Notes: generated by a model not told the origin, from the sequence alone. A stretch of DNA of 64,000 nucleotides from an uncultured Chthonomonas sp. (GCA_903951425.1 CAJBBX010000053.1:11412-75411); one strand, 5' to 3'; positions 3,967 through 64,000 are shown, counted from the stretch's first letter. Translations and numbers: made by a program.

Positions 3967-4734
3967 CTACTTGCTGGGGGCTGCGGCGGTCGGCTTGTCT
4001 GCTGCTTTGTCGGCTTCCATGCGGGTGATCGTGTACTTGAGCGGCCCGTCGCCGAGCATGGGAATGACCAGGCCGGTGATGGCGCCCTCGGAACGGACCA
4101 GCCGGGTGGTCTCCTCGCTCACGAAGCTCTTGCCCTCGACCTTCAGCTTCATGTCGCCCTGCGGGCCGTTGACGAGCCCCTCGGCCACTGTCTTGATCTC
4201 GATGCAGTCCACGGGCAGCTTGTCGCCCTTCTTCGCGCGGCCGACGATGGTCAGGACACCGTTCATCTTGCCCTTGCCGTTCTTACCGCCGGGTACGTCG
4301 AACTTGGCCTCCTCACCGATCCTCAGGGCCTTGGTGGGCATCTGGCTCTGGCGCGACATAAGCAAGATCTGGCCCATGGGGTTGCCGGTGGTCTCCTGGC
4401 GGGTGACCTTGCCGTCCCTGTCCATCTCGACGATGATCTCTCCGCTGCCGGCCGGCACCGGGAACTCCTGCCCGCCGAATTTGCCGACGGCGCTCTCTAT
4501 GGTCATGCCCAGCACGGTGGCCCCGTCGGCCTTGCTCTCCTTGACCTTGTCGACGGTCACAAAGGTCATCTCGATGGGGCTGTTGTCGGCGCTGGCAACC
4601 TGGATCACCGTCTTGTATCGGTCGGTGTCGCCTACCTTGTACGCCCTGCGTAGGTTGAACGTGTCCTGGGCCGAAGCTGCCGATACGGCCGCTAGGGCAA
4701 TCAACGCACACGCCAGTCGGCTCATTCGAAGCAT
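3967..4734 (-). CDS. secreted hypothetical protein (Lys-rich, beta-rich)
   Basis: ORF 3967..4839. The internal start MLRMSRLACALIALAAVSAASAQ at 4734 gives a canonical signal peptide. The 35 codons upstream are Arg-rich and look non-coding. Confidence 0.6.
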   Translation of the reverse strand: MLRMSRLACALIALAAVSAASAQDTFNLRRAYKVGDTDRYKTVIQVASADNSPIEMTFVTVDKVKESKADGATVLGMTIESAVGKFGGQEFPVPAGSGEIIVEMDRDGKVTRQETTGNPMGQILLMSRQSQMPTKALRIGEEAKFDVPGGKNGKGKMNGVLTIVGRAKKGDKLPVDCIEIKTVAEGLVNGPQGDMKLKVEGKSFVSEETTRLVRSEGAITGLVIPMLGDGPLKYTITRMEADKAADKPTAAAPSK

Positions 4735-4931
4735 CCGAGAGTAGCTCCTTCGTTCCGGCAGGGCGGCCCATGGCTCGCTTCGCCGCCGGTTGCTGTAAGT
4801 GAAGACGCAACGACGGCGTTCCGGGTGTCCATTCGGCACCAGATCCGCCTGTAAGCAGGCCAGATGGGTACCAGGGTCCCCATCATGATGGTCAATCTGG
4901 ACTGGGGGGCCTGCCGGTTGGCCGGACGTCG

Positions 4932-4940
4932 TGATATAGT
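4932..4940 (+). promoter_or_regulatory. extended -10 promoter element of RNA candidate copy 1
   Basis: TGaTATAGT. The homologous position in copy 2 reads TGaTATGAT. Confidence 0.4.
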
Positions 4941-4947
4941 ATTCCCG

Positions 4948-5047
4948 AACATGTGAGGCAAGGATGCGGGGAGACCTGCATCCCGCCTAATGGCTCTCTC
5001 AAGCCCGGCCCTGGTTCGGTGTGCCGCCTACCAGGGCCTCTTTTTTT
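4948..5047 (+). ncRNA. candidate structured small RNA, copy 1 (family not recognised)
   Basis: A 9-bp hairpin with a GAGA tetraloop lies at 4962-4983. The terminator hairpin pairs GGCCCTGGT (5007-5015) with ACCAGGGCC (5030-5038) and is followed by seven T (5041-5047). No + strand ORF flanks it. Confidence 0.5.
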
Positions 5048-5056
5048 GCGTCTAGG

Positions 5057-5470
5057 CTATAGCTGGGCCCGGCATTGAAGCCACCAGATCCCCGTGCCGT
5101 TCGCGACCCCGGCGCCGGGGTCCACCGTCAGCGTCTTGCTCGCGCCGATGACGCCGCCGCCCGTGGCGCTCCGCAGGTTGTCGTTCGCTTCGCTGTTGTC
5201 GTGCGCGTATGCCCACATAACGTACAGCGTGCACCGGCTCCGCGTGTCGAACTCCGCAGTGAAGCAGGCAAACCGGACCCGCCTTGCCCGAACATGCCTC
5301 CAGCGCCTCACCCATGAGTTTGCAGCGCCCGAAGCGCCGTATGGCGTCCGCGGCGACGGCGAGGTCGTGCGGCGTTCCGAACAGCAGGCCCCGCCGCGCC
5401 CCACGATGCCGTCGACGCGGCAACCGCGACGGCGCTCCCGGTGTCCATCGCACGCCACACTGGCATGCAA
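5057..5470 (-). pseudogene. truncated, frameshifted copy of the C-terminal ~135 codons of gene 5672..6568
   Basis: Three reading frames each carry pieces homologous to the full-length paralog. Examples are RGLLFGTPHDLAVAADAIRRFGRCKLMGEALEA and FTAEFDTRSRCTLYVMWAYAHDNSEANDNLRSATGGGVIGASKTLTVDPGAGVANGTGIWWLQCRAQL. There is no N-terminal part and no start. Confidence 0.65.
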
Positions 5471-5547
5471 GCAGTCCAGATGAGTACCAGAGATCGCAGA
5501 ATGTGATGCCGAAAGGACCAGCGCTCGTACCAGTCACCTCGCGTCCA

Positions 5548-5556
5548 TGATATGAT
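5548..5556 (+). promoter_or_regulatory. extended -10 promoter element of RNA candidate copy 2
   Basis: TGaTATGAT, at the same distance from the conserved ACATGTGAGG start region as in copy 1. Confidence 0.4.
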
Positions 5557-5563
5557 ATCTGTG

Positions 5564-5662
5564 AACATGTGAGGCCTTGGTGCAGGGAGACCTGCACTTC
5601 CGCCTAATGGCTCTTTCAAGCCCGGCCCTGGTTCGGTGTGCCGCCTACCAGGGCCTTTTTTT
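5564..5662 (+). ncRNA. candidate structured small RNA, copy 2
   Basis: Hairpin GTGCAGG-GAGA-CCTGCAC at 5580-5597. The terminator hairpin spans 5624-5655 and is followed by seven T (5656-5662). Confidence 0.5.
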
Positions 5663-5671
5663 GCGTCTAGG

Positions 5672-6568
5672 CTAGAGCTGGACCCGGCACTGAAGCCACC
5701 AGACCCCCTTGCCGTTCACCACTCCGGCGCCGGGTTCCACCGTCAGCGTCTTGCTAGCGCCGATGAGCACGCCGCCGATCGCGCTTCGCAGGTTGGTGCT
5801 GTCCTCGCTGTTGTCGTGCGAGTAGAGCCACGAGACATACGGCGTGTACCGGGTGCGTGTGTCAAACTCCGCAGTGAGGGACGCGAAACGGAAGCCGCCC
5901 TTGCTCGACATCGCCTCCAGCGCCTCGCCCACGAGCTTGCACCGTCCCAGGCGCCGCGTGGCGTCCGCGGCGATTGCCACATCGTGCGCACTGCCGAACA
6001 GCAGTCCGCGCCCGGCTCCGATGGAGATGCCCGCCGCGCTGCCGTTCTCCCACTCCTTGCCCAGCCGCGTGTAGGCGTTGCCGCGTCGGGTCCGCTCATC
6101 GAACGCCGCAGTGCTGCTCAGGCTGAGATCACCGATGCGCGTGTCGGCTGCCACACCCCACTTCGCCTCGTACTCCCAAGCCTGTGCGGCGAAGGGCACA
6201 TACCGCTTGCCGACCCAGATGCGCCCGTCATTGGGTAGTCGGCCAGACCAATACGCCTCGTTCGGCTGGTGGAAGACATGGGCGCTACCGTTGTGCATGT
6301 CGCCGAGCCCCACAGTGACGCGGGCGTTGGATCCGTCCGCCATGTTCCAGTCGAGGCCGGCGTACGAGGGGTAGCCCACCATGGCTCCGGCCCACTGGCC
6401 GTCGGTATGGCGGCGAAGGGCGCCGGTCATGTTGCTGAGGCCCCAGTAGGCATCCAGATGGAAGACAGGGCCCATCGGGGGCGTTTCCGGCTCTTCTCCG
6501 GCGACGGCCGCCAGCGGCGCAACGCCCAGGAGGGTCGCGGCTACCAAGGGCAACATCCATCTGCTCAA
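5672..6568 (-). CDS. secreted beta-rich protein (possible outer-membrane barrel), full-length paralog
   Basis: ORF 5672..6913. The signal peptide (W)MLPLVAATLLGVAPLAAVAG begins near 6556-6568, and GAAGGAG lies 8 nt before TTG 6568. The C-terminus is ...GVWWLQCRVQL. The start is uncertain by a few codons. Confidence 0.6.
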   Translation of the reverse strand: MSRWMLPLVAATLLGVAPLAAVAGEEPETPPMGPVFHLDAYWGLSNMTGALRRHTDGQWAGAMVGYPSYAGLDWNMADGSNARVTVGLGDMHNGSAHVFHQPNEAYWSGRLPNDGRIWVGKRYVPFAAQAWEYEAKWGVAADTRIGDLSLSSTAAFDERTRRGNAYTRLGKEWENGSAAGISIGAGRGLLFGSAHDVAIAADATRRLGRCKLVGEALEAMSSKGGFRFASLTAEFDTRTRYTPYVSWLYSHDNSEDSTNLRSAIGGVLIGASKTLTVEPGAGVVNGKGVWWLQCRVQL

Positions 6569-6660
6569 GTGGCGAACTCCTTCATCCGCGGCTCTGGAAT
6601 TGGCGCCTGCGTACCGTCGGCGCGTAGCCGCAGCACCAATATACCGCCGACGCCGACCTG

Positions 6661-6690
6661 TTGACACAGGCTCCCTGCCCGAGGTATCTT
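6661..6690 (+). promoter_or_regulatory. candidate sigma70-type promoter for hcp
   Basis: TTGACA (6661-6666), an 18-nt spacer, then TATCTT (6685-6690). The inverted repeat CCTGT-TGAC-ACAGG (6657-6670) overlaps the -35 box. Confidence 0.4.
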
Positions 6691-6772
6691 GCTGCCAAGA
6701 AGACGACAAGACGATCCGTTTGTCGTGAGTTGGCCGGCCGCGCAGCCGCGGCCACGAAAGGAGTTCCGCGTC

Positions 6773-8410
6773 ATGTTCTGTTACCAGTGTGAGCAGACCC
6801 TCAAGGGGACGGGTTGCACCGACCAGGGCGTCTGCGGCAAGGATGCCACCACGGCGGCCCTTCAGGACCTGCTGCTCTTCGCGTGTCGGGGCATCGCCAC
6901 CTACGCGCATCACTCACGCCTTCTGGGCGTGGTGGACCGCGAGGCCGACCAGGCCGTCATCGAGGGGCTCTTCACCACGGTCACCAACGTCAACTTCCAC
7001 CCGATCCTGCTTGAGCGCCAGGTGCGCGAGGCCGCCCAGGTCCGCGACCGCGCTCGGACACGCTACGAGGCGGCCGCAGGAGCCGCCGCGCAGAGCTTCA
7101 ACGGGCCCTGCAGCTGGACTCCTGCCGACGACACCGACATGCTGGTGGCTCAGGGGCGCTTCGCGGCCATCACCGGGCGCCGTTCGGCCCTGGGCGACGA
7201 CTACGTGGGCCTGCAGGAGCTGTTGACGTACGGCCTGAAGGGCGTCGCGGCCTACTACGAGCATGCCGTCAAGCTCGGCGTGATCGACGATGCCGTGGCC
7301 GCGCAGTTCAACGAACTGCTCCACTGCCTAAACCGCACTGACCTGACCGCCGACGAGCTACTGGGCAAGTGCCTGGAGTGCGGCACGCTGAACCTCCGCG
7401 TCATGGAGCTTCTCGACGCCGCGCACACCAGCACCTTCGGCCACCCTGAGCCCACGCAGGTCCGCGTCGAGCCGCTCAAGGGCAAGGCCATCGTCGTCTC
7501 CGGCCACGACCTGCCAGACCTCTACGCGCTCCTGCAGCAAACCGAGGGCAAGGGCATCAACGTCTACACCCATGGCGAGATGCTCCCGGCGCACGGCTAT
7601 CCCGAGCTCAAGAAGTTCAAGCACCTCGTCGGAAACTTCGGCGGGGCCTGGCAGAACCAGATCTCCGAGTTCGCCGAGCTGCCCGGCGCAGTGCTCATGA
7701 CGACAAACTGCATCCAGCGGCCGACCGACGAGTACATCGACCGCATCTTCACCTCGGGCCTCGTGGCCTGGCCCGGCGTCCTGCATATCAGCGACCAGGA
7801 CTTCACCCCGGTCATCGAGGCCGCCCTGGCCGCCCCCGGCTTCACCGAGGATGGTCCGGATCGCTACACCATGACGGGTTTCGGCCACAACGCAGTCCTG
7901 AGCGTGGCCGACAAGGTCGTCGGGGCAGTCAAGAACGGCGAGATCAAGCACTTCTTCCTCATCGGCGGCTGCGACGGCGGCAAGCCGGGCCGCAACTACT
8001 ACACCAAGCTGGCCCAGGCCGCGCCCAAGGACACGGTGATCCTCACCCTGGCCTGTGGCAAGTACCGCTTCAACAAGCTGGAGTTCGGCACGGTCGCCGG
8101 CCTGCCACGCATGCTCGACATCGGCCAGTGCAACGACACCTACTCGGCCATCAAGATCGCCTCGGCCCTGGCCGGCGCGTTCGAGTGCGGCGTCAACGAC
8201 CTGCCGCTCTCGATCATCCTCTCGTGGTACGAGCAGAAGGCCGTGGCGGTCCTCCTGACGCTCCTCAGCCTGGGCATCAAGGGCATGCGCATCGGCCCGT
8301 CCCTGCCGGCGTTCCTCACGCCCAACCTGGTGAGCAAGATCGTCGAGGCCTACGACCTGAAGCCCATCGGCACCGTCGAGGGCGACATGGCGGCCATGCT
8401 GTCGGCTTAG
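6773..8410 (+). CDS. hcp: hybrid-cluster protein / hydroxylamine reductase
   Basis: Starts MFCYQCEQTLKGTGCTDQGVCGK, the N-terminal Cys cluster of Hcp. The length is ~545 aa. GGAG lies 9 nt upstream of ATG 6773. Confidence 0.9.
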   Translation: MFCYQCEQTLKGTGCTDQGVCGKDATTAALQDLLLFACRGIATYAHHSRLLGVVDREADQAVIEGLFTTVTNVNFHPILLERQVREAAQVRDRARTRYEAAAGAAAQSFNGPCSWTPADDTDMLVAQGRFAAITGRRSALGDDYVGLQELLTYGLKGVAAYYEHAVKLGVIDDAVAAQFNELLHCLNRTDLTADELLGKCLECGTLNLRVMELLDAAHTSTFGHPEPTQVRVEPLKGKAIVVSGHDLPDLYALLQQTEGKGINVYTHGEMLPAHGYPELKKFKHLVGNFGGAWQNQISEFAELPGAVLMTTNCIQRPTDEYIDRIFTSGLVAWPGVLHISDQDFTPVIEAALAAPGFTEDGPDRYTMTGFGHNAVLSVADKVVGAVKNGEIKHFFLIGGCDGGKPGRNYYTKLAQAAPKDTVILTLACGKYRFNKLEFGTVAGLPRMLDIGQCNDTYSAIKIASALAGAFECGVNDLPLSIILSWYEQKAVAVLLTLLSLGIKGMRIGPSLPAFLTPNLVSKIVEAYDLKPIGTVEGDMAAMLSA

Positions 8411-11127: not shown

Positions 11128-11976
11128 TCACCCCTTCGCTTCCTCACCAACCGGCGCCTCCGCCGCGCGCACCAGCCGGTCCGCGTCCGTGGCGACGACG
11201 CCCGCTGCGGCGGGGCGGACCAGCCTGTCGCCCAGCGCCGACGCGTCGGCAGGGCGCAGGAGGGTGCCGTACTGGGTCAGCCGCACGGCTGCTGCCTCGG
11301 CTCCGGGCAGGATCTCGGCGGCGAGCTTGCGGATCGCCGGGTCGGCTCCGGCCTTGTGCTCTCCGGCGGCCACCTCGCGGATGGCCTTCACCGCCGCCTC
11401 GTCGGCCACCTGCTCATAGCCCTTCAGGATCGCCGCGCTCAGCTTGGGGTTCTTGTAGGCCAGCATGCGCCTGGTCAGCGCCCTGCGATGCGCCTCCTCC
11501 AAAAGGTCGTGGTCGCTGGCCTTGAGGCGCGGCAGTAGCTCCACCAGCGTGGGCTCGACGGCTGCGGTGACATCGTCATCGTTGTAGTCCAGGGCATCGG
11601 TCAGCGGGCCCACGCCTCGCACATCGTCGTATTTGGCAAGCTCCTTGGCGGCATTCCGGTAGGTCTGGCTGAGGGCGAAAGACCCAACCAGGACGTTGAC
11701 CAAGCTGATGTAACTTGTCAGGTCGCTGGCGTGTCCCGATACGACACTGTAGACAGCTACGGATGCCAAGAACACGGTGACCCCGATGCCGATCCGGCGG
11801 CTCCTCAGGCGCCGGGCGGCGTGGGACCGTACGGTCACGAGCAGGGCGTCGACACCGGCCGTGTCCACCTCGCGTCGGGCGCGGTCGCGTAACTCATCCT
11901 TGTCGCTGCTCAGCGCATCAAGGATGTTCGGCGAGATCACCCCGTCCTTCGGTCCTTCGTTAATCAGTCTGCCCAC
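11128..11976 (-). CDS. HEAT-like repeat protein with central two-helix membrane hairpin, paralog A
   Basis: 282 aa. Hydrophobic segments IGIGVTVFLASVAVYSVV and YISLVNVLVGSFALS. HEAT/PBS-lyase-like helices (AAVKAIREVAAGEHKAGADPAIRKLAAEIL). Confidence 0.65.
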   Translation of the reverse strand: MGRLINEGPKDGVISPNILDALSSDKDELRDRARREVDTAGVDALLVTVRSHAARRLRSRRIGIGVTVFLASVAVYSVVSGHASDLTSYISLVNVLVGSFALSQTYRNAAKELAKYDDVRGVGPLTDALDYNDDDVTAAVEPTLVELLPRLKASDHDLLEEAHRRALTRRMLAYKNPKLSAAILKGYEQVADEAAVKAIREVAAGEHKAGADPAIRKLAAEILPGAEAAAVRLTQYGTLLRPADASALGDRLVRPAAAGVVATDADRLVRAAEAPVGEEAKG

Positions 11977-12039
11977 TCAACGCTCCACTCGGGATAACGT
12001 CTGCACCACTACCAGCGCCCGTCACGCCCCTTCACCCGC

Positions 12040-12888
12040 TCACCCCTTCACCTCCTCACCGACAGGCGCCTCCGCCGCGCGCACCAGCCGGTCCGCGTCC
12101 GTGGCGAAGACGCCCGCCGCGGCGGGGCGGACCAGCCTGTCGCCCAGCGCCGACGCGTCGGCAGGGCGAAGGAGGGTGCCGTACTGGGTCAGCCGCACGG
12201 CCGCGGACTCGGCTCCGGGCAGGACGTCGGCGGCGAGCTTGCGGATCGCCGGATCGGCTCCGGCCTTGTGCTCTCCTGCGGCCACCTCGCGGATGGCCTT
12301 CACCGCCGCCTCGTCGGCCACCTGCTCATAGCCCTTCAGGATCGCCGCGCTCAGCTTGGGGTTCTTGTAGGCCAGCATGCGCTTGGTCAGCGCCTTGCGG
12401 TGCGCCTCCTCCAGCAGGTCGTGGTCGCTGGCCTTGAGGCGCGGCAGTAGCTCCACCAGCGTGGGCTCGACGGCTGCGGTCGTCTCCTTGTCCTGGAACT
12501 CCAGCGCCTCGGTCAGTGGGCCCACGCCTCGCACGTCGTCGTACTTCGCGAGCTCCTTGGCGGCATTGCGCTGCGCCTGGCTCGCGGCAAAGAGCGTGGC
12601 AAGAACTCCGGTCATGCCGCCGAAGCTACCCATGCTCTTGCCGTGGTCGGTAGCGACCATGATGATGACGAGTAGCGCGTAAAAGCAGAGGATGCCGATG
12701 CCCACCTTGCGCCGCTTTGCACGCCGCATGCCCTCGGCGCGCACGGTGGCCAGCAGGGCGTCGACGCCCGCCTGGTCCACCACCTGGCGCGCCTGCTCGC
12801 GGATCTGCACCTTCTTGCTGCTCAAGGCCTCCAGCGTCTTCGAGTCGATGGCCTGGCCCTGCGGCTCCTCGTGTATGAGACTGCCCAC
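12040..12888 (-). CDS. HEAT-like repeat protein with central two-helix membrane hairpin, paralog B
   Basis: 282 aa with the same architecture. The C-terminal ~145 aa are nearly identical to paralog A. Confidence 0.65.
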   Translation of the reverse strand: MGSLIHEEPQGQAIDSKTLEALSSKKVQIREQARQVVDQAGVDALLATVRAEGMRRAKRRKVGIGILCFYALLVIIMVATDHGKSMGSFGGMTGVLATLFAASQAQRNAAKELAKYDDVRGVGPLTEALEFQDKETTAAVEPTLVELLPRLKASDHDLLEEAHRKALTKRMLAYKNPKLSAAILKGYEQVADEAAVKAIREVAAGEHKAGADPAIRKLAADVLPGAESAAVRLTQYGTLLRPADASALGDRLVRPAAAGVFATDADRLVRAAEAPVGEEVKG

Positions 12889-60600: not shown

Positions 60601-61535
60601 TGCGTCTTCGGCCCAAACTCGTGGTGGCGCCGCTGGCCTACGGCTTGAGCGACGGCTCCGTCGCCGCCCTGGTGGCCCTTGCGCGGCAGGGCGCAACGGT
60701 CTACCTGAGCGGCGATCCCTCCGTGCGGCCGGATGGAACACGCGATCTCGAGCGCCTCGAGCGCCTTTGCGGCGTGCGCGAGACCGGCCGCCGCGAGGAG
60801 GCGGGCTCGCTTCCGGTTGTCAACCTCGCGCCCCTGCCCGGCGTCTGGACGCTCCGTGCAGGCGGCCGCACGTTCGGGCGGCACAAGCTGGGCGCCGGCG
60901 CGACGCTGATGGCCGAGGAGCCATGGGAGGCGCTGGGCAAGCTCGACCCGGCCGGCAATGACTACGACGCCCTAAGCGACCCGCGACGCAACCCGTACGC
61001 CACGCTCTTCGCGGGACTGGTTCGCACGCAGTCCGAACGCCTTGTGCCCGGTAGCGGAGCCTGGCGGCTCATCTCCGTGCCTCGTAGCGGCGGAGGCACA
61101 CTCGCTACGCTCTGCCCGCCCGAGGACGGCAACGGCCCGGCGCAGGTCTCAGCCATTGTGGCGGGGCGCGATGTGCGCCTGGGTGGCGCCCGTGGCTGGC
61201 CGTGCCTCGTGCATATGGACGGCACGGGCGGCCTGCGGGCAGTCTCCGCAGCGGGCGCCGTCGCGGTGGGCAAGCGGCTCGTTGTCTCAGGTTCGGGCGG
61301 ACCCTTCGTGGCGGCCTCGTTGGACGGCCTGCCGTTGGAGCGCAGCCGCCGCATCGGGCTCTGTTCGGTCTTCGGCGGCGTCGTGAGCCTGCAGGGGCCG
61401 CGCGTAGTGCGCGCACGCATCGTGGAGCGGCGCGCCGGCGTCGATGCCACGGTGGCGCCTGCCGCTGTGCGCCGTAGCGCCGGCGGATCCTCCGTCGGCT
61501 GTCCGCCTTGCGACTGGGTGGAGGTAGAGCGATGA
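57699..61535 (+). CDS. giant secreted multidomain glycoside-hydrolase-like protein (GATase1-like, CBM4/9-like, GH42-like barrel modules)
   Basis: Signal peptide MRPRILCLALLAVLLGAPMPSAA. CBM-like IPNGGFEEGLEGWI. GH42-like LRRHWNDFLTKRYGGDAALRAAWG and MGEFGVKTH. The upstream part of the 1341-aa ORF overlaps the divergent gene. Confidence 0.6.
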   Translation: MRPRILCLALLAVLLGAPMPSAAYRAAIFWHPGLPVVGAATPPETFERVFRAVGVACERLDAAAVADPARLNRARFDLLVVSTGASYPAAGQSALLAFLKQGGDLLCTGGYAFDAPMEMQDGVWARSSALLAERMQQGRDPAAATIPNGGFEEGLEGWITGGPARVATAAEARTGKACVTVTSELGSGGAGVTHGLDVEPGRTYLVGASHRTHGVRGVGFAFVAVYQYGADGALLTFRDFSQMRGDTPWKRSEYRVTIHPQARLVQFRCGLYLASGQAWFDDVTCAETPAEVRINAHYGDPQDALLVQSDQLPIYSPDQRFAGVRCVTDPDGPLVGTSWRLDGAVSGYDATAQLRAEARWMPLVRAHDRYGRAVGCPGALVSWRKGQFRGGQWAIFGVVDRDLFAGPTGGGLLAQVIALLRGGISADWLAGDQPIYNPGETALLSSRITAREPGASVECALTLDAPAPGGVWRRVATVPVTLGPWTDGAAQVSARWTAPTDAPDFIRARLVVRAAGRVVDRCETGFCVSNPEVVRRGVRIAFSGNRFTLTPPGGKPRRSMLFGTDTYGNMLWSPNCSPLTWYRDLETMRDHGLHMWEMLQPCPPGFVFDEKLWRQTDALVQLAQRFGLPYMAGLLIGQNVAVDDATLQRQAELCRAFALRNRAAPGLLYYLNGDYQLRISDTPDLRRHWNDFLTKRYGGDAALRAAWGSRAPAEALGSIPLQEAPPEAWFDLRARDLAEFKAWLVRRWNETLVKAVRSVDRAHPILGEYYQRPWDGIDLRLSMGGMDCANYGYFGPPRKDLREMLATLRWNDMTLHGQGVAMGEFGVKTHDGWAADREPSDYHAQRTEPEQRRLFWWVVHAAFGAGATKVQNWCWSDDPDGMFPWGMATTNPLRGKPAAKLYRSLSRVSDLVEPAQRRPQAILVMPDAWRLGAPDTLGRLGPMNALQCLVAAGVDFLTANEADLPGLLRLRPKLVVAPLAYGLSDGSVAALVALARQGATVYLSGDPSVRPDGTRDLERLERLCGVRETGRREEAGSLPVVNLAPLPGVWTLRAGGRTFGRHKLGAGATLMAEEPWEALGKLDPAGNDYDALSDPRRNPYATLFAGLVRTQSERLVPGSGAWRLISVPRSGGGTLATLCPPEDGNGPAQVSAIVAGRDVRLGGARGWPCLVHMDGTGGLRAVSAAGAVAVGKRLVVSGSGGPFVAASLDGLPLERSRRIGLCSVFGGVVSLQGPRVVRARIVERRAGVDATVAPAAVRRSAGGSSVGCPPCDWVEVER

Positions 61536-61765
61536 CGATGACCTAGCGGGAGCGGGTTCTCGCGGCAGTGAGTCGCCAAGAGCCCGACCGGAGCCCGCGC
61601 GACTTCTGGGCCAAGCGGCCCACGATGGACCGCACCTCGGTCACCGTGATGAGCGGAGGCTGCTCGACGACCTTGGCATCTACATTGCTCACGTCGAGGC
61701 GGCCCGCCCGCCCGAGTAGCGCCTACCGAACGGCTTCGTGCTCAACGTGCCTGGACGAGCAGTAA
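61532..61765 (+). pseudogene. remnant of a URO-D-family gene (in-frame TAG at codon 5, truncated)
   Basis: ATG ACG ATG ACC TAG CGG GAG CGG GTT... translates to MTMT*RERVLAAVSRQEPDRSPRDFWA. Compare MTSRERVRTVIEHGKPDRIPIYGW of 16876..17862. Homology fades after about 25 codons. Confidence 0.45.
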
Positions 61766-61908
61766 GTCTACAACGAGCCCGCGTGGAGCCCCATGCCCGA
61801 GGATGTCCCCGGCGCACCTCTTCCAGCCTGACGTGCCACCCGCGAACATCGGCGCGATGTACGGCCTTCCCGTGCGCTGATCCACCTGGGTTCGGTATCC
61901 TATCAGGC

Positions 61909-63249
61909 ATGAGGAGACCTGCACCCGCTGCCGCGTCGGCCCTGCGCCGCCGCCTGCCCGGCCTCGCCTGGCTGCCGATCGCCGCAGTGGCGTTGCTGGC
62001 GCCCGTGGGCTGCGGGCGGCTCGCCACGGGCCCTGCGCCCAAGCAGGTGATCTACTGGACCGGCTGGTCGGCCGAGGAGTTCAATACCCAGCAGCGGCTG
62101 GTGGATGAGTTTAACCGCGAGCACCCGGGCATCCAGGTGCAGATGCTCAGCCAGTTCGGCAACTCCGGCTACCAGAAGGTGCGCATCGCGTTCGCCGGCG
62201 GCGCCACGCCCGATGTGATGTCCACCATCTGGGCCGATGAACTGGCGGGCTACGCCATGCGCGGCGTCCTGGAGCCTCTGGATGGCTACCTGAAGCGCTC
62301 GGGCCGCAACCTGGAGCGCGACTTCACGCCCGGCGTAGCCCGGATGCTGCGCGTTCGCGGCAAGGTCTATGGCCTCTGCGCCACCACCAACACCAGTTTC
62401 ATCGCCTACAACAAGTCCATCTTCCGGGAGGCCGGCCTCGACCCCTACCATCCGCCCACCACCATCGCCGAGCTCGATGCCGCCGCCAGGGCCTGCACCG
62501 TCTCCGACCGCCGTGGCTCGTTTGTGCGGTACGGGTTCCGGCCGGGCGGGTTGGCGCTCTGGGCCTATGTCTTCGGTGGCCAGTGGGTGGACCCGGCCAC
62601 GGGCCACATTACGGCCGACCACCCGGGCAACCTGGCTGCGCTGCGCTGGCTGGCCTCCTACGCCAAGAGGTATGACCTGAAGAAGATGCAGGTCTTCCAG
62701 AGCACCTTCGGCAGCGACCAGACCGCCAACGGGCCCTTCTTCGTGGGCAAGGTGGCCATGTGGTCCACCGGCGAATGGGCCGAGCAGTTCGTCCGCCGCT
62801 ATGCCCCCGACCTCGAATGGGGCTGGTTCCCGCTGCCCGCGCCTCCCGGCGGGCGGACCGCCTGCTCCAGCGCCGGCGGTAGCGTCTTCGTCATCCCGGC
62901 CGCGTGCAAGGACAAGGAGGCCGCCTGGACGTTCCTCGATTGGTTCACACGCCCGAAGCCCGTGGCGAGGTTCTGCAGCGGCATCGGCAATGTGCCCCCG
63001 GTGGTGGAGGCGGGCGCCGACCCGGTGTTCCAGCAGAGCGCCCTCTTTCGCTTCGCCGTGAATCTCTCCCGTAGCAGCAACACCTTCGGCCCTCCCGGCA
63101 CGCCCATCTGGCCCACCTACGCCCGCGAGATCGGCCGCGTCGAGGAGAAGGTCATGCTAGGCGGCGGCGACCCGGTAGCCCTCCTGGCCGACCTCCAGCG
63201 CCGCATGACGCGCGAGCAACTTGACGCGATGCAGGACCTGAGCGGATGA
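61909..63249 (+). CDS. ABC transporter substrate-binding lipoprotein (sugar-type, family 1)
   Basis: Lipobox LLAPVGCG, then VIYWTGWSAEEFNTQQRLVDEFNREHPGIQVQ, typical of carbohydrate SBPs. Confidence 0.85.
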   Translation: MRRPAPAAASALRRRLPGLAWLPIAAVALLAPVGCGRLATGPAPKQVIYWTGWSAEEFNTQQRLVDEFNREHPGIQVQMLSQFGNSGYQKVRIAFAGGATPDVMSTIWADELAGYAMRGVLEPLDGYLKRSGRNLERDFTPGVARMLRVRGKVYGLCATTNTSFIAYNKSIFREAGLDPYHPPTTIAELDAAARACTVSDRRGSFVRYGFRPGGLALWAYVFGGQWVDPATGHITADHPGNLAALRWLASYAKRYDLKKMQVFQSTFGSDQTANGPFFVGKVAMWSTGEWAEQFVRRYAPDLEWGWFPLPAPPGGRTACSSAGGSVFVIPAACKDKEAAWTFLDWFTRPKPVARFCSGIGNVPPVVEAGADPVFQQSALFRFAVNLSRSSNTFGPPGTPIWPTYAREIGRVEEKVMLGGGDPVALLADLQRRMTREQLDAMQDLSG

Positions 63250-63281
63250 GGAGGTGAGGAGGGCTGGAGGTGAGGAGGTGA
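63250..63281. repeat. left arm of inverted repeat: four tandem octamers GGAGGTGA (second unit GGAGGGCT)
   Basis: Read directly from the sequence. It begins one base after the SBP stop codon. Confidence 0.9.
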
Positions 63282-63700
63282 ACGGCGACGGCAGTGCAGA
63301 TCGCAAGGTCGGCTCGCACCGTGATCTTGAGGTGTACAAGCGGGCGTTTGGCCTTGCCATGTCTGTCTTCGAGGTGACCAAGTCGTTCCCGCGGGAGGAG
63401 ACCTACTCGTTGACTGACCAGATTCGGCGCTCCTCCCGGTCAGTTTGCGCCAACCTCGCAGAGGCGTGGCGTAAGCGGCGCTACCAGGCCGCGTTCATCA
63501 GCAAGCTCAGCGATGCGGAGACCGAAGCCGCAGAGACGCAGGTCTGGCTCGAGTTCGCCGTGAAGTGCGGGTACCTCGAGGCGTGCCTGGGTGGCGATTT
63601 GTACAGGGGATATGATGGTGTGGTGCGTTCGATCGTCGGGATCATCGCGAATGCCGCCAGCTGGGTGATGCCCAGCGGCCGAACTGGAGGCAACCCGTGA
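63278..63700 (+). CDS. four-helix-bundle protein (23S rRNA intervening-sequence protein / TIGR02436-like family)
   Basis: DLEVYKRAFGLAMSVFEVTKSFPREETYSLTDQIRRSSRSVCANLAEAWRKRRYQAAFISKLSDAETEAAETQVWLEF matches the family pattern as I remember it. The start is either GTG 63278 (GGAGG 7 nt upstream) or GTG 63254. Confidence 0.8.
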   Translation: MNGDGSADRKVGSHRDLEVYKRAFGLAMSVFEVTKSFPREETYSLTDQIRRSSRSVCANLAEAWRKRRYQAAFISKLSDAETEAAETQVWLEFAVKCGYLEACLGGDLYRGYDGVVRSIVGIIANAASWVMPSGRTGGNP

Positions 63701-64000
63701 AAGAGCGATCTTCTCACCTCCTCACCTCCTCACCTCCTCACCTCCACCCCTACAGGCGGCGTGCGTCGCGCAATGCGCAACTCACCGGCCTCGCCTTCGC
63801 CGCGCCGTGGATCGTCGGGTTCATCGTCTTCTTCGCGTATCCGGTCATCGCCTCGGCCTACTACAGCCTTTGCAGCTTCGATGCCATCCGGCCTCCGCGG
63901 TTCATCGGCTTCGAGAACTACCGGCGCATGTTCACGGAGGACGACCTTTTCTGGAAGTCGCTCTGGAACACGCTCTACATGGTGGTGGCCGGGTTGCCCG
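63697..64000 (+). CDS. sugar ABC transporter permease (3' end outside window)
   Basis: Frame 1 is open to the window end: ...RNAQLTGLAFAAPWIVGFIVFFAYPVIASAYYSLCSF... The only in-frame start is GTG 63697, which has GGAGG 6 nt upstream and overlaps the stop of the upstream gene (GTGA). Confidence 0.75.
   Translation, partial: MKERSSHLLTSSPPHLHPYRRRASRNAQLTGLAFAAPWIVGFIVFFAYPVIASAYYSLCSFDAIRPPRFIGFENYRRMFTEDDLFWKSLWNTLYMVVAGLP
63714..63745. repeat. right arm of inverted repeat: four perfect tandem octamers TCACCTCC
   Basis: Read directly from the sequence. It is the reverse complement of the left arm (29 of 32 positions) and lies inside the first 17 codons of the permease gene. Confidence 0.9.

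Follow-up and report, generated by a model that had tools for sequence, protein, structure and literature searches.

The 64,000-nt stretch of DNA analysed here (the window; uncultured Chthonomonas sp., GCA_903951425.1 CAJBBX010000053.1:11412-75411, positions counted from its first letter) carries a gene for a four-helix-bundle (4HB) protein at the junction between the substrate-binding-protein (SBP) and permease genes of a sugar ATP-binding cassette (ABC) operon, where the gene is clamped by two tandem octamer arrays that are close to reverse complements of one another. This octamer clamp is not peculiar to the window, and is instead a conserved property of the 4HB gene family that surrounds most relatives. 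The class is very large, with members in Armatimonadota, Chloroflexota, Cyanobacteria and Bacteroidota, together with the intervening sequence (IVS) of the Coxiella 23S rRNA. With moderate confidence, we interpret the element as an IVS-type cassette that is carried in the host transcript, and whose arms would form a long RNA duplex serving for processing or occlusion.

A 4HB gene cassette inserted at an SBP/permease junction

The features of the locus are as follows.
61909-63249, + strand: ABC SBP gene; SBP_bac_1 Pfam match at E 1e-44; 446 aa as called on contig L001; TGA stop at 63247-63249
63246-63249, + strand: ATGA, relic of an ancestral SBP-stop/permease-start overlap, as judged from the orthologous operon L211; the insertion starts right after it
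63250-63281, + strand: left arm, four octamers GGAGGTGA GGAGGGCT GGAGGTGA GGAGGTGA, from Tandem Repeats Finder (TRF) and an inverted-repeat search
63278-63700, + strand: 4HB gene, PF05635 / TIGR02436; 140 aa from GTG 63278; TGA stop at 63698-63700
63686-63699, + strand: permease ribosome-binding site (RBS) and start, with GGAGG at 63686-63690, a 6-nt spacer and GTG 63697, within the 3' end of the 4HB open reading frame (ORF)
63714-63745, + strand: right arm, four perfect TCACCTCC units, stop-free in all frames and equal to permease residues 6-17 (SHLLTSSPPHLH)
63697-64000, + strand: ABC permease gene, 5' part; 315 aa on L001; extends beyond the window end

Contig L001 is identical to the window region (an offset of 57277 converts its positions to those of the window), and gene calls on it place the SBP at 4632-5972 and the permease, which has a BPD_transp_1 domain, at 6420-7367. 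An initial annotation made from the sequence alone had placed a 4HB gene between these two, and both the gene calls and the Pfam/TIGR matches confirmed this. In a hidden Markov model search the ORF scored 101.9 bits against PF05635 (curated cut-off 33.8) and 92.2 bits against TIGR02436 (curated cut-off 24), so that the family assignment holds above the curated cut-off of either model. The GxxRxxxSxxxNxxE-type motif described for the PF05635 family (PMC3936711) is present in the protein. A phmmer search of the PDB returned 2GSC (E 1e-7) and 2RLD (E 6e-7), five chains being deposited for each; according to PMC4990558, which cites Lin et al. 2006, the Xanthomonas protein of 2GSC is a homopentameric toroid. 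Public assemblies call the 4HB protein as 140 aa from GTG 63278 (P0001: 99% identical, 140 aa); an alternative start at GTG 63254 would give 148 aa.

The permease was likewise found to take its start and RBS from cassette sequence, as had been proposed, with both GTG 63697 and its GGAGG lying inside the 4HB ORF. The 4HB stop overlaps this GTG as GTGA, and the GTG is the sole in-frame ATG/GTG/TTG from the upstream in-frame stop (63613-63615) to at least 63900. At the other end of the cassette, the 4HB start GTG 63278 sits in the last unit of the left arm, which has TGA stops in two frames. Since TRF starts the left array at 63247, the SBP TGA stop belongs to its first unit.

The closest named relatives of the permease come from Chthonomonadales/Armatimonadota. 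In the orthologous operon L211, in which the SBP C-terminus is clearly homologous to that of the window (IDRVEEAVVLGGADP... vs IGRVEEKVMLGGGDP...), the SBP stop overlaps the permease ATG as ATGA, and in a further orthologous operon, L207, the two genes are separated by a 6-nt gap. Neither junction contains a 4HB gene or any array. The absence of the whole unit from both operons points to an insertion, or to a presence/absence difference, and these insert-free operons define its borders in the way the initial annotation had anticipated; orthologous arrays without a 4HB gene, a pattern that it had named as contrary to a cassette, were found in neither. Because ATGA is kept at 63246-63249 with the left arm right after it, the stop/start overlap is the precise point at which the unit was gained, or from which it was lost elsewhere. 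No target-site duplication was found at the borders GGATGA/GGAGG and CCTCC/ACCCC (one empty site compared, L211). The cassette parts the permease body from its ancestral ATG, and the permease N-terminal tail is 31 aa in the window vs 9 aa in the cassette-free L211. Given that tails of homologous permeases range from 7 to 45 residues, the arm-encoded segment is tolerable. The idea that the gene had inserted into a pre-existing hairpin was rejected for this locus, the empty L211 having the ATGA overlap and no arrays.

The arms are predicted to form a long RNA duplex

The two arms are complementary at 29/32 positions and are separated by 432 nt, which reproduces the geometry first described for them; the three mismatches are transversions, all in unit 2. 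An inverted-repeat search returned arm pairs of 31 nt at 87% and 22 nt at 95%, and TRF assigned period 8 to both arrays. The 16-mer GGAGGTGAGGAGGTGA (up to 2 mismatches) occurs six times in the window vs 0.08 expected, a count reached in 0/100 shuffles. The predicted energy of the arm duplex is -65.3 kcal/mol, compared with -38.3 +/- 3.7 kcal/mol for shuffled right arms. When RNA 63230-63770 was folded, as the initial annotation had recommended, the partition function gave a mean left-arm-to-right-arm pairing probability of 0.90 per base, and the closing stem was retained in both the minimum free energy (MFE) and centroid structures (z = -3.1).

A scan of 61500-64000 found no promoter-like or terminator-like sites (including no GC-rich hairpin followed by a T run), and the lack of a promoter-like site makes it probable that the cassette is co-transcribed within the operon. 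An Rfam scan of 62800-64000 gave no rRNA match, and none of the PADLOC anti-phage defence families was matched.

Further observations concern the surroundings of the arms. Weak complementarity runs past the arrays into host coding sequence (63225-63249 and 63746-63770), giving 57-nt arms at 74%; the MFE structure uses this complementarity, which may be due to chance. Contig k141_338100 (L002, 6437-6589) is identical to the window through 3.5 TCACCTCC units and then continues into unrelated sequence absent from the window, probably because of an assembly join at another TCACCTCC array elsewhere in the genome or community. A third GGTGA-type array lies at window 12027-12060, with minus-strand sense GGTGAGGA GGTGAAGG GGTGAGCG GGTGAAGG, and has neither a partner arm nor a 4HB gene. 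It covers the 3' end of ORF 12040-12888(-), with the final codons for …PVGEEVKG*, and the interval separating that ORF from ORF 11128-11976(-), the two ORFs being tandem paralogues of 282 aa each.

The clamp is conserved around 4HB genes

The first three unrelated homologous loci inspected all had an upstream (GGGTGAAN)n and a downstream (NTTCACCC)n array, and the sample comprised 80 fetched metagenomic loci encoding 4HB relatives at 54-68% identity. Short tandem arrays, typically of 3-8 units, were present in 74/81 upstream and 64/76 downstream flanks, with period 8 in 62/74 and 55/64 of these arrays, respectively, and mostly 7 or 9 in the remainder. The units vary among loci and include GGTGACAA, GGAGACAA, GGAGATAG, GGAGCGGA, GGACGGAG and GTAGAGA, among others. 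Flank-to-flank local complementarity had a median of 19.5 vs 7.5 for same-geometry segments of the same loci (99th percentile 12), and 82% of 66 loci exceeded the 99th percentile of this background (Mann-Whitney p = 5e-28). Pairing was specific to the locus: among 66 downstream arms, a locus's own arm was the best partner in 24/66 cases and in the top three in 36/66 (median rank 3 vs 33.5 expected; permutation z = 17.8), and in one locus (L128) variant units were mirrored in order at 41/41.

Circular alignment of 64 upstream units yielded the consensus RRGGWGAN, with 8.7 bits vs 6.1 for shuffled units and conservation of G3 in 61, G4 in 63, G6 in 60 and A7 in 55 units. On the coding strand the upstream arm was purine-rich in every locus. 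MFE folding of 70 cassettes gave a mean energy gain of -14.7 kcal/mol relative to a reversed downstream flank, which is a poor control, since pyrimidine arrays remain able to pair with purine arrays after reversal. The upstream neighbour was co-directional in 76% of cases by a longest-ORF method, a proportion not clearly above the usual bacterial level. Separately, ~10-15% of cassettes (L132, L142, L156, L185, L187, L188 and L214) have a second purine-type array between the 4HB stop, which it directly adjoins, and the pyrimidine array; the 3' arm might then pair with either a local partner or the distant upstream arm, a possible alternative-pairing layout.

At the level of the protein, 46 columns were invariant among 24 4HB relatives, and gene pairs with common flanking genes gave a ratio of nonsynonymous to synonymous substitution (dN/dS) of 0.04-0.10 at a synonymous distance (dS) of ~0.9 or more. 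The arrays were retained in orthologous loci at dS ~0.9. All 4HB gene pairs at or above 83% DNA identity stood in orthologous or homologous contexts, and pairs at 76-82% were mostly in unrelated contexts and yet had a common unit type. More than 8000 relatives of the window 4HB subfamily were found at E 1e-5, and in a search of 5.8 billion proteins the next relative of the window protein was 75% identical. Judged by these substitution patterns, the 4HB protein is under strong purifying selection and functional, and the cassette is long-lived.

Cassettes and arms-only arrays in other hosts

The same 4HB subfamily occurs on cyanobacterial plasmids (39 records), and on plasmid pNPUN02 of Nostoc punctiforme the cassette has arms GGGGAGCA/TGCTCCCC. 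In Anabaena sp. 90 a distant 4HB member lies between cas6 and cas4 with GGTGACAG arrays, and in Chondrinema (Bacteroidota) a 31%-identical 4HB gene with AT-rich CAGTGAA-type arms lies between the adaptor and pump genes of a resistance-nodulation-division (RND) system. Published material contains related arrangements: in Pleurocapsa a PF05635 gene is found inside a cas operon in the order cmr3-4HB-cmr2 (PMC3936711), and in Xanthomonas a (GGGAATC)4-like array 6 nt from bccP (XCC0517) overlaps the start codon of XCC0516 (PMC4692102 supplement). XCC0516 is the PF05635 protein of PDB 2GSC.

An operon whose permease is 74% identical to that of the window (L217; GCA_041487935.1, JBGPOG010000278.1, 1209-5393) carries two independent 4HB cassettes. 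The one at the SBP/permease 1 junction is 54% identical to the window 4HB and has GACRSGGG/CGCCGCGT arms, and the one between permease 1 and permease 2 is 30% identical, with GACGATG/CATCGTC arms of period 7. At both junctions the start of the following permease falls within or beside the cassette, whose right arm is read as protein. For permease 2 the annotated start (4692) was placed too far 3', its first transmembrane segment being encoded just after the CATCGTC array in DNA taken as intergenic. A similar layout was noted on Anabaena sp. 90 pANA02 (L215), where the right arm (CTGTCAC)4 at 1945-1974 lies inside the annotated cas4 coding sequence, upstream of the conserved N-terminal Cys motif. 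Inspection by eye found no in-frame ATG/GTG/TTG between this arm and the motif, and the start of the downstream gene, as for the window permease, seems to lie on that side of the arm which faces the cassette.

Arrays also occur without the gene. An exact scan for (GGTGANNN)3GGTGA was made over 185,579 genomes, with the matches listed taken as fixed 8-kb blocks, which may cut off genes. Among the matches listed, many phyla were represented, many arrays without the gene formed inverted pairs with short loops, and a PF05635 ORF adjoined only ~6/120 arrays, so that arrays alone do not predict the gene. Arms-only pairs had the purine arm first in 17/18 cases. Within 2.5 kb on either side, 36 cassette loci had extra 7-9-nt arrays, and numerous 7-8-nt arrays and pairs near the cassettes were built of other units; the idea of one genome, one unit was rejected, since several different units were found within single loci. 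One arms-only hairpin (L140, 1307-1446; AAGGTGAC x4.4 / GTCACCTT x5, 65-nt loop) stands at a gene junction with the upstream stop in its 5' arm, the next ATG in its loop and part of a signal peptide encoded by its 3' arm, and has the same unit as a 4HB cassette 1.1 kb downstream.

In the loci surveyed (L007-L126 from the genome scan, and the flanks of L127-L216), 7-9-nt arrays of many unit sequences were very dense intergenically in Chloroflexota, Cyanobacteria, Bacteroidota, Planctomycetota and others. Some are found in coding sequence; one of these (L097, 7228-7515) sits within the 5' portion of a long ORF. At L150 (3150-3533) a 62-nt higher-order tandem repeat of at least 5 copies carries an internal (AAATYCG)4-5 array in each copy; its "spacers" are identical, and it is therefore not a CRISPR array, though a CRISPR finder might call one.

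A proposed RNA module in the operon transcript

The Coxiella 23S IVS, the nearest relative that has been studied by experiment, shares the anatomy of the window element, which we accordingly read as the same module placed in an mRNA. In the proposed mechanism, the arms of the operon RNA would zip into a ~32-bp duplex that closes the ORF into a 432-nt loop and that, to judge from the rRNA IVSs that carry genes of this family, would act as a processing or insulation device. RNase III may cut the duplex and free the cassette RNA, while an uncut duplex would occlude the starts at its base. Tandem arrays would permit register-tolerant pairing and offer several equivalent cleavage sites. The permease itself now starts at the GTG, whose GGAGG is located near the 3' end of the 4HB gene; it is predicted to be coupled to the 4HB stop through GTGA, and its reading frame runs through the stop-free right arm, which becomes a tolerated N-terminal tail. 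Because this start falls within the loop, ahead of the right arm, a cut in the stem would sever it from the permease body; conversely, translation from the 4HB gene into the permease would melt the stem. Stem formation and permease translation should on both grounds be antagonistic.

Several considerations weigh against this mechanism. Complementary arms, a family assignment, an insertion, purifying selection and conservation across the class are shown here; pairing in vivo, RNase III cleavage and coupling are all steps that we infer. Mismatches between arms carry no clear sense-RNA signature (62 of G.U type and 47 of A.C type, a difference that is not significant, and 92 transversions), and swapped arms of orthologous loci score about as well as own arms, so that the comparison does not demonstrate compensatory change over this span of time. 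A stem alone explains neither the GGWGA core nor the period of ~8, which hint at a partner with sequence specificity, nor does a stem require the purine-first polarity, which is invariable. By a crude ORF method, the upstream neighbour is divergent at about one quarter of the cassettes, and host read-through is therefore not universal. Finally, a cut by RNase III would decapitate the permease mRNA of the window, which would be costly unless partial.

Alternative explanations

The initial annotation took the octamers as Shine-Dalgarno (SD) and anti-SD sequences, and at the window locus this identity is real: the left unit is a full SD sequence (GGAGGTGA) with partner UCACCUCC. It could be part of a translational switch, in which ribosomes land on the multiple SD copies of the left array, the right array imitates the 3' end of 16S rRNA, and pairing titrates translation of the 4HB protein and the permease. 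The computed pairing of the left arm with a generic 16S tail (-17.9 kcal/mol), the 4HB start within the last left-arm unit and the purine-rich arms fit such a switch, and across the class SD 5-mers occur at twice the density of shuffles, almost wholly through GGTGA itself. We nonetheless consider it improbable, since the SD identity is not conserved by the class, whose unit RRGGWGAN has A rather than G after GGWG (position 7) in 55/64 loci. The longest exact piece of TAAGGAGGTGATC in 73 upstream arms averaged 5.3 nt vs 5.1 nt in composition-matched shuffles, and only the window's upstream arm reaches a match of at least 8 nt. In the class register the window unit reads GA-GGTGA-G, and GGAGG arises there because a variable triplet, GGA, abuts the class-wide GGTGA core. 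The predicted burial of the 4HB start in the stem similarly applies to the window and not to the class, as arrays elsewhere usually end tens of nt earlier, often with a separate SD between array and 4HB start, and the sole AT-rich Bacteroidota example has non-SD units. The class may still have a 5' arm that is in general purine-rich and ribosome-friendly. A further possibility, that slippage-prone simple repeats common in these genomes flank the gene by chance and have no role, draws on the density of 7-9-nt arrays near the loci, their presence in many phyla and their varying copy number. It is already disfavoured, and we regard it as extremely unlikely, because complementarity is specific to each locus's own arm pair, variant units are mirrored in order, arrays are kept in orthologues at dS ~0.9 with constant polarity, and the cassette-free orthologue L211 has none.

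The unexplained core, period and polarity, the lack of a wobble bias and the tracking of protein clade by unit type keep two other explanations alive, neither of which excludes an RNA stem. The arrays could be terminal inverted repeats of a DNA-level mobile element, each made of several binding sites as at the ends of Tn7 or Mu and read by a recombinase acting in trans or by the 4HB protein, with RNA pairing incidental. Cassettes are present or absent among orthologous operons, recur independently at junctions of the homologous operon L217, and are found with the same unit type in unrelated contexts; the conserved core suggests sequence-specific recognition, G.U bias is lacking among arm mismatches, the strict purine-first order holds for arms-only pairs too, and arms-only hairpins can share the unit of a nearby cassette (L140). 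That the IVS ORF serves mobility was proposed by Ralph and McClelland, as cited in PMC4990558. We judge such an element unlikely, given that the window borders show no target-site duplication against the one empty site, that gene calls on L001 include no transposase or recombinase within +/-6 kb, that the searches yielded no second copy close to identity (the next-closest protein being 75% identical and all pairs at or above 83% DNA identity orthologous), that no catalytic motif is recognised in the protein, whose relatives of solved structure have no assigned function, and that sites spaced by 8 bp would fit poorly with proteins bound next to one another on a DNA duplex. Somewhat less probable still is a protein-binding array, in which each subunit of a toroidal 4HB pentamer would contact roughly one of the tandem GGWGA units of an RNA or a single-stranded DNA (ssDNA), for autoregulation, transcript protection or action on the many arms-only arrays. 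The conserved core, the period of ~8 and the usual 3-8 units would suit this arrangement, as would the five-chain deposits of 2GSC and 2RLD and the toroid of the Xanthomonas protein (Lin et al. 2006, as cited in PMC4990558). Unit type tracks protein clade, the nearest neighbour being of the same type in 49/56 cases, and two helix-4 columns follow it almost perfectly, with 0.87 and 0.86 bits of mutual information; however, this correlation is inseparable from shared ancestry, and the units of more distant family members are quite unlike these (GGGAATC, GACAGAT, CAGTGAA). A homologue, Avd, works together with a reverse transcriptase in diversity-generating retroelements (DGRs).

Comparison with known systems

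In its anatomy, the resemblance of the window cassette to ORF-bearing rRNA IVSs was borne out by the literature. The Coxiella 23S IVS has a 28-bp terminal stem, two to three tandem GACAGAT units (a strain-variable number) upstream of the S23p ORF, and an RNase III cut site that maps to the first repeat, within the stem (PMC4990558). The rRNA IVSs of Coxiella and Leptospira and the window cassette have in common a PF05635 ORF in sense orientation in the loop of a ~28-32-bp terminal stem, a 5' arm of short purine-rich tandem repeats, and a location inside a host transcript (PMC4990558). They differ in that the window cassette is housed at the junction of two protein-coding genes of an operon and the rRNA IVSs in helix 9, 25 or 45 of 23S rRNA; in that the Coxiella ORF is decaying and probably untranslated, whereas the window-type protein is under strong purifying selection; and in that the window right arm is translated in the downstream gene. 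The predicted RNase III excision would harm the permease message.

Purine-rich 7-8-nt units in 3-5 or more copies, frequently as convergent inverted pairs, have also been described in Xanthomonas, Nostoc/Anabaena and Geobacter. The Xanthomonas study counted 186 repeats and 70 convergent pairs, at a mean of 28 nt from the preceding ORF, and regarded them as G-quadruplex formers (PMC4692102); in Geobacter metallireducens, 24 + 21 + 8 pairs located at operon junctions were considered putative IHF/HU sites (PMC2700814). Like the arrays studied here, the Xanthomonas and Geobacter repeats are intergenic and near the end of the upstream ORF, and they are transcribed (PMC4692102, PMC2700814). By contrast, most pairs in Xanthomonas, Nostoc and Geobacter enclose no gene (~100-nt loops), their units are GGGAATC, GTTGCTYN and TCTCCGTS, and the Xanthomonas and Geobacter papers make no connection to PF05635 genes.

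Repetitive extragenic palindromes (REP) and bacterial interspersed mosaic elements (BIME), with their REP-associated tyrosine transposases (RAYT) and the hairpin-forming REP pairs known as REPINs, are similar in having short inverted repeats at operon junctions and a gene that is itself flanked by an inverted pair. The classic REP/BIME site, malE-malF, is also an SBP-permease junction. Nevertheless, RAYT is an HUH/Y1 transposase and the 4HB protein lacks such motifs (only PF05635 and Avd-like matches were found), the arms of the window class are tandem arrays and not single palindromes, units differ between loci of one genome, and the 4HB genes are often multi-copy. The terminal inverted repeats of the window cassette are a feature shared with DNA transposons and miniature inverted-repeat transposable elements; these differ from it in that no second copy was found in the 64-kb window and no transposase domain was found.

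The proposed relation to DGR Avd proteins held in part. Avd is a homologous four-helix bundle and the window protein gave weak matches to PF22296, NF033474 and phrog_3206, but it fell below the curated cut-offs of the Avd models (NF033474 25.2 vs 80; PF22296 23.9 vs 40). No reverse transcriptase was present among the called genes within +/-6 kb on L001, template and variable repeats not being part of that search. Avd genes, moreover, are not known to have tandem-repeat arms. In solved structures Avd is a pentameric toroid (PMC10053308).

Implications

ORF-bearing rRNA IVSs, the abundance of PF05635 genes and scattered hepta- and octamer repeats were already known; their connection appears new, on absence of evidence only, in that a literature search with most subscription journals outside its scope returned no work linking PF05635 genes outside rRNA with inverted tandem-repeat clamps at operon junctions. 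Finding the same gene and clamp at ABC-transporter, RND-pump and cas junctions and beside bccP turns an rRNA curiosity into a general element class, with a defined anatomy, a conserved repeat motif and cultivable, tractable hosts (Nostoc punctiforme, Anabaena, Xanthomonas). For annotation, translated right arms and starts inside the cassette mean that gene callers mis-start such genes, as with L217 permease 2.

A more speculative idea, to which we assign a low probability, is that the 4HB pentamer and its repeat arms constitute an unrecognised self-propagating element. The toroid would read 8-nt-spaced GGWGA units on RNA or ssDNA, and the pentamer would help cassettes, and the far commoner arms-only hairpins, to spread or persist in rRNA helices and at gene junctions. 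It might do so by a RAYT/REPIN-like route, or through RNA and a reverse transcriptase supplied in trans, as for Avd. If true, this would provide one explanation for ORF-bearing rRNA IVSs, for the hepta- and octamer repeats of cyanobacteria and Xanthomonas and for the 'paired sites' of Geobacter.

More generally, the clamp offers a lead for part of the unexplained inverted hepta- and octamer repeats in Xanthomonas, Nostoc and Geobacter. The PF05635 "IVS proteins" are abundant, their structures have been solved since 2006, and their function, a standing question, is now linked to the origin of ORF-bearing rRNA IVSs, a question since the early 1990s; both have become testable.

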